Shown: one piece after another, positions 12,768 through 12,839 of the stretch | Layout: each line of letters starts with the position of its first letter | Position numbering within the stretch: the stretch's first letter is position 1 | Origin: a virus | Strand: one strand, 5' to 3' | DNA length: 64,000 bases | IMG/VR virus record: IMGVR_UViG_3300045988_042567 | Coordinates: 1-64,000 of that record | Made by a program: the position numbers and the translations under genes | Notes under the pieces: model-generated | Seen by the model: only the letters and a program-made list of their open reading frames with translations | The model's database searches: none | What the model was told of the DNA's origin: nothing

Positions 12768-12839
12768 GCTCCATTAGTTCAGCGATAGAACAGTAGACCC
12801 TAAACCTACGTGTCACAGGTTTGAATCCTGTATGGAGCA
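12768..12839 (+). tRNA. candidate amber-suppressor tRNA (anticodon CTA, reads UAG)
   Basis: Acceptor arms GCTCCAT/ATGGAGC; D arm GTTC-AGCGATA-GAAC; anticodon arm GTAGA-CCCTAAA-CCTAC with an A:C mismatch at 31:39 and C at position 33; T arm ACAGG-TTTGAAT-CCTGT. Confidence 0.55.

Follow-up and report, generated by a model that had tools for sequence, protein, structure and literature searches.

The stretch of viral DNA analyzed here, hereafter the window, comprises 64,000 nucleotides (nt), positions 1 to 64,000 of the IMG/VR virus record IMGVR_UViG_3300045988_042567, and contains a gene for a transfer RNA (tRNA) with the anticodon CUA, which is that of an amber suppressor. We consider it highly probable that this tRNA is real, conserved, and an orphan with respect to its own genome, which term we use because no in-frame TAG was found for it to decode in the genome read. 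ARAGORN called a tRNA of 73 nt with the anticodon cta at positions 12768–12840 of the plus strand, and the Rfam tRNA model RF00005 matched the same gene with 56.8 bits (gathering threshold, 29; E = 6.7e-10 in 31 kb), which score is mid-range among the 26–28 tRNAs of the window. The gene measures 72 nt when the discriminator A73 is counted and does not encode the CCA end, and a cloverleaf results when the 72-mer is folded to minimum energy (z = -2.9 versus shuffles). The cloverleaf and its anticodon, together with the acceptor arms, the T arm, and the 7-nt loop CCCTAAA as well as C33 and A31•C39, had all been recognized in an initial annotation of the sequence, whose reading of the gene we can therefore endorse.

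The acceptor arms, GCTCCAT/ATGGAGC, are followed after 2 nt by the D arm, GTTC-AGCGATA-GAAC, with its 7-nt D-loop AGCGATA; then come the anticodon arm, GTAGA-CCCTAAA-CCTAC, a variable loop of 5 nt (GTGTC), and the T arm, ACAGG-TTTGAAT-CCTGT, with the T-loop TTTGAAT. The anticodon stem is of 5 base pairs (bp) or less, and the loop CC-CUA-AA has the register of an amber suppressor, with 7 nt and a purine at position 37. The near-universal U33 and G19:C56 are absent from this tRNA, which has C33 and A19:U56 instead; the tertiary 19:56 pair, formed by G18-A19 of the D-loop and U56 of the T-loop, is thus an A:U, an isosteric covariation. Position 33 belongs to a C32-C33 doublet, and 31•39 is an A•C mismatch, the anticodon arm being formally readable as a stem of 4 bp with a loop of 9 nt. 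As the initial annotation had also noticed, the tRNAs Arg-TCT, Ser-GCT, and His of the same array likewise have a non-Watson–Crick 31:39, and C33 recurs in the tRNA-Lys(UUU) of the window strain.

The conservation of this scaffold was assessed by means of two scans. An exact pattern in which the anticodon was left free retrieved six IMG/VR contigs, and in all six the tRNA is identical, its CTA included, and occupies one and the same slot, flanked by tRNA-Gly(tcc) and tRNA-Ile(gat); a looser pattern, with only the D arm and the T loop fixed, raised the number of sequences having the identical 72-mer to 16 (the window plus 15 from IMG/VR or metagenomes). A variant that we call type 1b differs from this type 1 in a single base, C4 to U, and still forms a G•U pair at that place. 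In a sister species (loci L291, L295, L297, and L308) the same syntenic slot is occupied by a type 2 copy that differs at 8 of the 72 positions: four of those differences make up two compensated pairs (U3:A70 to C3:G70 and A49:U65 to G49:C65), the change of C43 to U yields a G•U, and positions 31–33 change from ACC to CUU, which restores U33. The CUA-AA was kept in the type 1, type 1b, and type 2 copies alike. Between the window and the sister species the adjacent coding DNA is 68–78% identical and the other tRNAs 77–90%, while the block consisting of the suppressor and the tRNA-like gene with the anticodon CAU that adjoins it is 94.8% identical, with all eight differences lying in the suppressor. 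The compensatory changes, along with the retention of CUA-AA despite flanks of only 68–78% identity, argue for purifying selection rather than drift.

The same scaffold also carries a different suppressor anticodon. At positions 1177–1249 of the minus strand of the metagenome contig Ga0326511_10123599 (L307) there is an opal suppressor with the loop CC-TCA-AA, which shares with the amber one the D arm, the T loop, the discriminator, and C33, has 31:39 paired as U:A, and stands in an array (Sup, Ile-gat, Met, Cys, Pro-tgg) syntenic with that of the window. Over the four scaffold variants, 8 of the 21 pairs were changed on both sides and 96.4% of the cells were paired, which result none of 500 shuffles reached; in this covariation test the D arm and the T loop, having been fixed by the search pattern, are uninformative. 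From these comparisons of sequence we judge the CUA tRNA to be a functional-looking gene under structural selection and no decayed copy. A search with the 572-amino-acid (aa) neighboring protein returned only loci with at least 98% identity, and added no diversity. The D-arm/T-loop signature was also encountered in a tRNA-Asn(GTT) with an encoded CCA (L296, L301, and L304), as well as in a tRNA-Gly(GCC) that an unrelated phage carries (L292).

As to where the gene came from, derivation from a paralog in the array was considered and rejected, the best identity being only 68% (to Asn and Arg-TCT; 66% to Lys), so that no parent was identified. The T arm and the motif of the D-loop are similar to those of the phage's tRNA-Gln, with different acceptor stems. 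When 185,579 species genomes of bacteria and archaea were searched with the scaffold pattern nothing matched and no bacterial donor emerged, nor did a megablast of the tRNA region against the GenBank phages give any match; and a structured RNA directly upstream of the gene was sought and rejected (z = -0.4).

The carrier of this gene is a Zeta-type crAss-like Bacteroides phage of ~175–185 kb, which placement was made from genome properties and hallmark proteins and not from a TerL phylogeny. Exact-protein look-ups put the window on contigs of 174–183 kb from the human gut, which were found in more than 200 sample blocks; the contigs of the lineage as a whole measure 174–185 kb. The window has a GC content of 36.2% and all of its genes on the plus strand, among them those for SPFH/flotillin, a PurA-like protein, helicases, a DnaB-like helicase, Toprim, RNase H, nrdD, and dUTPase; downstream of the window lie a ligase, an enzyme of the PolyA_pol family (CCA-adding type), PNKP, and a family A DNA polymerase (PolA), while the late module is located upstream, on the opposite strand. 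That the phage is crAss-like, a group to which the initial annotation had referred, was borne out by the Pfam matches in the late module of same-lineage contigs to Crass_capsid (PF23898), CrAss_Ring_1 (PF24228), and crAss_MUZ (PF25731), and the properties of the Zeta group are all present: a genome within 145–192 kb, many tRNAs (26–28), a DNA polymerase of family A or B (here A), and dense introns with homing endonucleases. The nearest GenBank phage record is the epsilon-type csAssE-Sib, with merely ~40% amino-acid identity. When the major capsid protein of csAssE-Sib was used as a query for late genes, the matches were swamped by an unrelated, abundant phage of ~150 kb; a late-protein search of genome contigs gave only relatives of 47–63% identity, and an exact look-up of the first open reading frame (ORF) of the window, which has a TTG start, gave no record.

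Within the window there is no sign that TAG is recoded. Its 89 genes end in TAA (53), TGA (22), or TAG (14, or ~15%), and the ORFs are, as initially described, uninterrupted in the standard code. Reading TAG as sense added no more ORF length than did reading TGA as sense, and the ORF coverage—defined as the fraction of sequence in ORFs of at least 150 codons—went from 0.65 with TAG as a stop to 0.67 with TAG as sense. Beyond the TAG terminators the next in-frame stop comes after a median of ~5 codons and a maximum of 42. Two kinds of candidate were examined and discarded: the sole pair of ORFs joined through a TAG (segments of at least 180 nt) was a noise frame inside the flotillin gene, and programmed readthrough with long C-terminal extensions was dismissed upon finding that the longest extension past a TAG was of 42 codons. 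Among the ~50 larger ORFs of the window scanned with Pfam, neither a phage release factor nor an aminoacyl-tRNA synthetase was found.

The late genes were read on the IMG/VR contig 3300045988_023864 (182.5 kb; L007), which bears the identical CUA tRNA and is 92–94% identical to the window, and on ENA/Logan contigs of the same lineage, a lineage to which the assembly ena:ERZ27286261:k141_54319 (~180 kb; 98% identical to the window) also belongs; with ~81 kb of early and ~59 kb of late sequence, some ~77% of the genome was covered. Outward from the divergence point, the late ORFs encode TerL (752 aa), a protein of 101 aa, the portal (733), and then 250, 593, 1,897, 464, 414, 870, 140, 142, 651, 674, 109, 157, 746, and 389 aa; these are followed by the Crass_capsid (473), proteins of 271, 324, 300, and 225 aa, the ring protein (230), proteins of 146, 198, and 1,173 aa, the muzzle (1,593), and finally proteins of 392, 170, 188, 275, 94, ~1,615, and at least 549 aa. 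In code 11 these ORFs run contiguously, tightly packed and without interruption throughout the ~59 kb, and the TerL gene itself ends in TAG. No in-frame TAG was present in the hallmark late genes, neither in those for TerL, the portal, and the major capsid protein (here Crass_capsid), in which Yutin et al. (2021) look for it, nor in those for the ring and the muzzle. The coverage of the late loci was 0.89–0.99 with TAG as a stop versus 0.91–0.99 with TAG as sense, and did not change with TGA as sense either, so that the gain in coding density of more than 5–10% by which recoding is recognized (Borges 2022; Kienbeck 2024) was not seen in the ~77% of the genome read. Throughout that portion the phage uses the standard code. 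The initial annotation had proposed that the tRNA serves to decode UAG in the phage's own late genes, and had held that a lack of genes with in-frame TAG elsewhere in the genome would count against this idea; no such gene occurs in the sequence read, where TAG acts as a genuine terminator, and the proposal does not stand there.

That the procedure detects recoding where it exists is apparent from other phage contigs (120–270 kb, most of them 130–190 kb) that were found by way of a common glucosaminidase domain: in L132 and L150–L177 the coverage rose from 0.05–0.21 to 0.97–0.98 once TAG was read as sense. In these loci the recoding in late genes of related phages, to which the initial annotation had appealed, was indeed observed. 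Two further contigs of ~175–179 kb, L129 and L133, are partly recoded (coverage from ~0.35 to 0.66) and each contains two different, Gln-like Sup-CTA tRNAs in tandem, 6 nt apart, on the minus strand (L129, 14688–14838; L133, 16430–16580), which suppressors are unrelated in sequence to that of the window. The glucosaminidase protein of the window lineage (1,027 aa; L098, 2–2354; L100, 9269–12352) is encoded ~7 kb upstream of the window, and its domain of ~150–230 residues is 54–81% identical to the copies in the TAG-recoded controls. Most of the recoded copies contain 5–8 in-frame TAGs, aligned mostly with Q, against none in the window lineage. These similarities point to a gene pool on which standard-code and TAG-recoded phages both draw, and the two kinds of phage probably have common hosts.

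The CUA tRNA is a member of a dispersed array (Table 1), all of whose tRNAs share their strand with the early and replication genes. The initial annotation had put it at the head of the tRNA cluster, which is correct insofar as it leads the dense sub-array at 12768–14565, but four tRNAs precede it: Pro(agg) at 8257, an Rfam-only tRNA at 10355, Tyr at 10671, and Gly at 10843. The CAU tRNA-like gene (Met/Ile2-type) begins 4 nt 3' of the discriminator of the CUA tRNA and has its own discriminator at 12920; with the loop CTCATAA, a 7-bp acceptor (GCGGAGG/TCTCCGC), and an oversized D-loop of 14 nt, it is atypical in form and yet 100% identical between the two species, whose flanks are 68–78% identical. 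In L005 and L007 (in the latter at 3309–4137) this gene is split after CTCATA, within the anticodon loop, by an insertion of ~760 nt with an HNH ORF, the 3' half being kept; the insertion looks like a tRNA intron.

Immediately beyond lies a candidate self-cleaving ribozyme of the hepatitis delta virus (HDV)-like, theta type. Its match to the Rfam model had 38.1 bits versus a gathering threshold of 44 (E = 1e-5 locally and 8.6e-4 in 31 kb) and was the sole HDV-like match across the 31-kb tRNA region. The 5' end of the candidate, its predicted cleavage site, falls 2 nt after the CAU tRNA-like gene ends and so within the ±5 nt of a tRNA 3' end that characterize theta ribozymes, the tRNA concerned being the CAU neighbor and not the suppressor. 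A second HDV-like match (37 bits) was found in L007 at 4139–4202, after the intron-like insertion; at the corresponding place in the sister species (L308) there was none.

Table 1. Positions of the CUA tRNA gene and of other features in the 64,000-nt window. For the flotillin, PurA-like, ferritin-like, and bactofilin-like genes, the coordinates follow from pairing the listed proteins with the listed intervals in order.
Feature	Position	Strand	Evidence or description
Amber-suppressor-type tRNA gene, anticodon CUA	12768..12839	+	ARAGORN, Rfam tRNA, cloverleaf fold, identical and compensated copies
Anticodon CTA (positions 34–36), then A37, A38	12800..12802	+	Sequence, ARAGORN, kept in type 1/1b/2 copies
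Early-region dispersed tRNA array, with the CUA tRNA as a member	8257..36511	+	26 ARAGORN tRNAs and 2 Rfam-only
Atypical tRNA-like gene, anticodon CAU	12844..12920	+	Rfam tRNA 20.8 bits, below gathering; missed by ARAGORN
Candidate HDV-like (theta-type) self-cleaving ribozyme	12922..12985	+	Rfam RF02682
RAGATH-34 RNA match	8164..8261	+	86.7 bits (gathering 60.7)
tRNA-Pro(AGG)	8257..8328		
Rfam-only tRNA	10355..10424	+	40.6 bits
tRNA-Lys(UUU)	13550..13625	+	Loop CC-TTT-AA, C33
SPFH/flotillin protein	17867..19855	+	662 aa
Rfam-only tRNA element	21949..21999	+	31.2 bits, 51 nt
Adenylosuccinate-synthetase-like (PurA-like) protein	23282..24436	+	
ORF among the tRNAs	28565..28966	+	133 aa; ends in TAG, TAA one codon on
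Bactofilin-like protein	35980..36429	+	
Ferritin-like protein	39754..40395	+	
nrdD split by an intron	56653..59776	+	GIY-YIG intron

Several other features of the array deserve mention in their own right. The tRNA-Lys(UUU) of the window differs in body and in loop from that of strains otherwise 92–95% identical (L002, at 4578–4650, L004, L006, and L007), where the loop is CT-TTT-AA; such a difference between close strains indicates that the allele was replaced, which replacement could be a response to anticodon nucleases targeting tRNA-Lys. The RAGATH-34 match overlaps the 5' end of tRNA-Pro(AGG) by 5 nt. Of the two Rfam-only elements, that at 10355 has the odd loop AAATTAT without U33, and that at 21949 consists of an acceptor, a D arm, and a TGT anticodon arm with no T arm; ARAGORN found neither a tRNA-Val nor a tRNA-Thr in the window, while the strain L309 has a normal tRNA-Thr(tgt). 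The 133-aa ORF gave a weak match to the C-terminal part of the ribosomal protein L7/L12 (23.6 bits; cut-off, 25.9). The flotillin, PurA-like, ferritin-like, and bactofilin-like proteins are early cargo unusual for a phage. Introns split nrdD (by a GIY-YIG intron in the window, by HNH or NUMOD insertions in other strains), TerL (an intron with a 281-aa endonuclease; L100, 994–4249, minus strand), and the Crass_capsid gene (a NUMOD1 intron; L348, 5735–8090), their presence varying among strains; the TAG that seems to end nrdD exon 1 sits within the intron.

Starting from what is demonstrated—the existence, fold, and conservation of the gene, its place in the early-strand array, and the absence of recoding in the ~77% of the genome read—we would envisage the following course of events. 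The CUA tRNA would be co-transcribed with the early genes, probably as a unit with the adjoining CAU tRNA-like gene, whose 3' end the HDV-like ribozyme would define; once RNase P had cut where the CAU tRNA-like RNA begins, the CUA tRNA would still bear a trailer of 4 nt, and the nucleotidyltransferase of the phage, a PolyA_pol-family enzyme whose gene was found 10 kb beyond the downstream end of the window, would supply the CCA. Charging would fall to a synthetase of the host, most plausibly with Gln or Lys, because U35 is a main identity element for both and because TAG is read as Gln in the recoded relatives; the acceptor, with G1:C72, C2:G71, and A73, is not Gln-like. By virtue of U35, Gln or Lys is the usual fate of CUA tRNAs. 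Borges et al. may also be cited for that same fate. The charged tRNA would compete with release factor 1 (RF1) at UAG, which readthrough should be nearly harmless to the phage, whose own TAG-ended genes would gain a median of ~5 and a maximum of 42 residues; with so small a cost, any selected benefit would have to lie elsewhere. The targets would then be either UAG-terminated genes of the host, with the effect of weakening it or countering its defenses, or TAG-recoded phages that share the host. C33 and the unpaired 31•39 may hold the efficiency of the suppressor low, being compatible with a deliberately weak suppressor as well as with an impaired one.

The explanation that we favor overall, with moderate confidence, is accordingly that of a maintained orphan suppressor that acts on UAG codons of the host or of rivals, in which scheme the role is what we infer. 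That the tRNA actively suppresses and has been selected for its effect on non-self messages is, by itself, a tentative proposition that might well prove right or wrong, and the more specific idea of an attenuated amber suppressor kept as a weapon or regulator, rewriting UAG termination in the host or in TAG-recoded competitors, we regard as doubtful for the present. Several considerations weigh against the favored explanation. C33 in place of the near-universal U33 and the unpaired 31•39 could both cripple decoding, and the expression, the aminoacylation, and the readthrough are predictions made from the gene alone. The TAG terminators are not depleted (~15%), nor do they have closer back-up stops than do TGA or TAA, so that there is no genomic footprint of active (strong) suppression. 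The late regions come from relatives 92–98% identical to the window and not from the window's own genome, and ~42 kb (~23% of the genome, roughly 81.5–123 kb of contig 023864) lie outside the reading and could hide a few TAG-containing genes. Moreover, the assignment to the published clade discussed below was made through shared properties and not through sequence identity.

Those ~23% are also what is left to a dual code, in which the CUA tRNA would translate in-frame TAG in the phage's own late genes for structure and lysis. The idea has precedents, inasmuch as late-gene recoding is described for crAss-like phages in the literature, the related large gut phages among our controls are 97–98% covered only with TAG as sense, and L129 and L133 combine partial recoding with Sup-CTA tRNAs. 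Yet the hallmark genes, those for the 1,897-aa and ~1,615-aa proteins, and ~35 other late ORFs are open in code 11 in relatives that bear the identical tRNA, TerL is itself terminated by TAG, the coding density does not gain from TAG as sense, and the published description of the clade is one of no suppression (PMC12386605); a late-gene dual code is thus largely refuted, and we deem it highly improbable. It is unlikely, too, that the gene has no present function, being either a relic of a recoded ancestor or a pre-adaptation—an incipient code change in the sense of Yutin et al. (2021)—that is now neutral. The Zeta phages do switch codes over short phylogenetic distances, and suppressors without recoding have been taken as a stage before the emergence of a new code (PMC7886860); nothing in the TAG stops indicates that they have adapted to a suppressor, and C33 and 31•39 may signal low activity. 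A neutral gene, however, would hardly be expected to undergo compensatory substitutions and to keep CUA-AA between species diverged to 68–78% in the flanks, and well-diverged Zeta phages hold to the same strategy without accumulating TAGs, according to PMC12386605.

The shared gene pool might be taken to suggest a traffic with TAG-recoded phages, in which the tRNA would help to acquire and express their modules, or would interfere with or exploit recoded phages or prophages in the same Bacteroides cell through an untimely unlocking of their TAG-gated late genes. In keeping with this, the glucosaminidase domain is 72–81% identical to copies in TAG-recoded phages of ~180–190 kb, with Q at the TAGs, and Borges et al. 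raise the sensing of co-infecting phages through suppressor tRNAs; but the case is purely circumstantial and the lineage yielded no gene with TAGs that it had acquired recently, so that we give it a slim chance. Nor do we think it at all probable that the gene product is no suppressor but an RNA of tRNA-like form that takes no part in decoding (serving, for instance, to divert anticodon nucleases or as a scaffold on which the unit of CAU tRNA and ribozyme is processed) or a tRNA whose anticodon is modified or shifted so as to read something else. C33, the formal 4-bp stem and 9-nt loop, and the tight linkage to a second tRNA-like gene and a ribozyme match would fit such a role, as would the occurrence of C33 in the strain's tRNA-Lys(UUU) where the sister strains have U33, which hints that anticodon loops are under pressure. 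In other respects the loop provides the canonical context of a suppressor (C32, CUA, A37, A38), the type 2 ortholog has the same anticodon with a normal U33, ordinary tRNAs of the array also have a mismatched 31:39, and no other register yields a purine at 37 plus a U-turn. A pyrrolysine tRNA, finally, is suggested by the label "tRNA-Pyl" that ARAGORN gave to the gene, which label follows from the anticodon only and is printed for any CUA. Nothing but the CUA speaks for it: the 6-bp anticodon stem, 3-nt variable loop, 1-nt spacer between acceptor and D stems, and reduced D-loop of such tRNAs are replaced here by an ordinary cloverleaf, and the ~50 larger window ORFs gave no Pfam match to Pyl synthesis or PylS, which renders the identity negligible in probability.

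In gut phages an alternative code is usually signaled by a suppressor tRNA, and annotation pipelines rely on this signal. The present gene illustrates that the signal can mislead, since a conserved CUA tRNA is found here in a phage whose checked genes, the late hallmarks included, read in the standard code; a re-annotation of this phage in code 15 would be wrong. The question is raised of why well-diverged, standard-code Zeta phages keep a CUA tRNA under purifying selection, the answer to which is relevant to the origin of code changes and to whether phages turn termination readthrough against hosts or rivals; culturable Bacteroides crAss-like systems make that question approachable. If the tRNA were indeed a weapon or regulator, the scaffold would have been re-targeted between UAG (CUA) and UGA (UCA) across Zeta lineages, and suppressor scaffolds would be mobile "stop-codon effectors" that precede genome recoding and are independent of it.

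Among known systems, the closest is found within the Zeta group itself, in which suppressor tRNAs and codon reassignment agree imperfectly and suppressors without recoding were interpreted as a possibly incipient code change (Yutin et al., 2021; PMC7886860). A 2025 description of 43 Zeta genomes (PMC12386605) places 12 in a "clade 8" of Bacteroides phages with 156–188 kb, a GC content of 35.4–36.9%, polA, and 17–29 tRNAs, the tRNAs being at the start of the early block; Sup-CTA is present in all of the clade 8 genomes except a possibly incomplete one, with "no suppression." The phage of the window resembles clade 8 in every property checked, including the association with Bacteroides, a genome of about 164–188 kb, a GC content of ~35–37%, PolA, 20–29 tRNAs, the CTA tRNA, and the lack of in-frame TAG in genes; the phenomenon has already been reported, for what is very probably this clade. 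According to the same text, its authors, who have no explanation for their role either, regard such tRNAs as apparently non-functioning, doubt the incipient change because diverged phages retain them, and speculate about a weakening of the host or of its defenses. In Lera and its relatives, as described there, TAG stops are rare and another stop is always close, whereas the phage of the window has ~15% TAG and no special back-up. In the parts of that description and of the other cited papers that were consulted, we did not meet with the peculiarities of C33 and A19:U56, the sharing of a scaffold by amber and opal suppressors, or the linkage to a CAU tRNA and a ribozyme.

With the TAG-recoded (code 15) crAss-like, Lak, and other gut phages (Ivanova 2014; Yutin 2021; Borges 2022; Peters 2022), the phage of the window has in common an early-region CUA tRNA, late and early modules on opposite strands, and recoded relatives in the broad group, but unlike them it has no recoded genes in the ~77% read; and whereas the suppressors of L129 and L133 have U1:A72, a tRNA-Gln-like body, and U33, the window tRNA differs from these in the acceptor end noted above. 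The neighborhood of the gene recalls the tRNA-associated theta ribozymes of gut phages, whose genomes are enriched in CCA-adding enzymes and RNA ligases (Kienbeck et al., 2024; PMC10879173): here as there, the 5' cleavage site of an HDV-like match lies no more than 2 nt from a tRNA 3' end, the tRNAs lack an encoded CCA, a CCA-adding-family enzyme, PNKP, and a ligase are present, and a suppressor tRNA belongs to the ribozyme unit of a Bacteroidota gut phage. Unlike in that system, the candidate ribozyme adjoins the CAU tRNA-like gene and not the suppressor, its score is below threshold, the code is standard, and L308 is without a match. The classical suppressors of Escherichia coli, such as supE and supF, have CUA followed by A37 and A38 as does the window tRNA, for which the same competition with RF1 at UAG would be expected. 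In contrast to them, the window tRNA has C33 and an unpaired 31•39, is not a one-step mutant of any tRNA in its array, and represents no mutant allele but a wild-type gene maintained across species.

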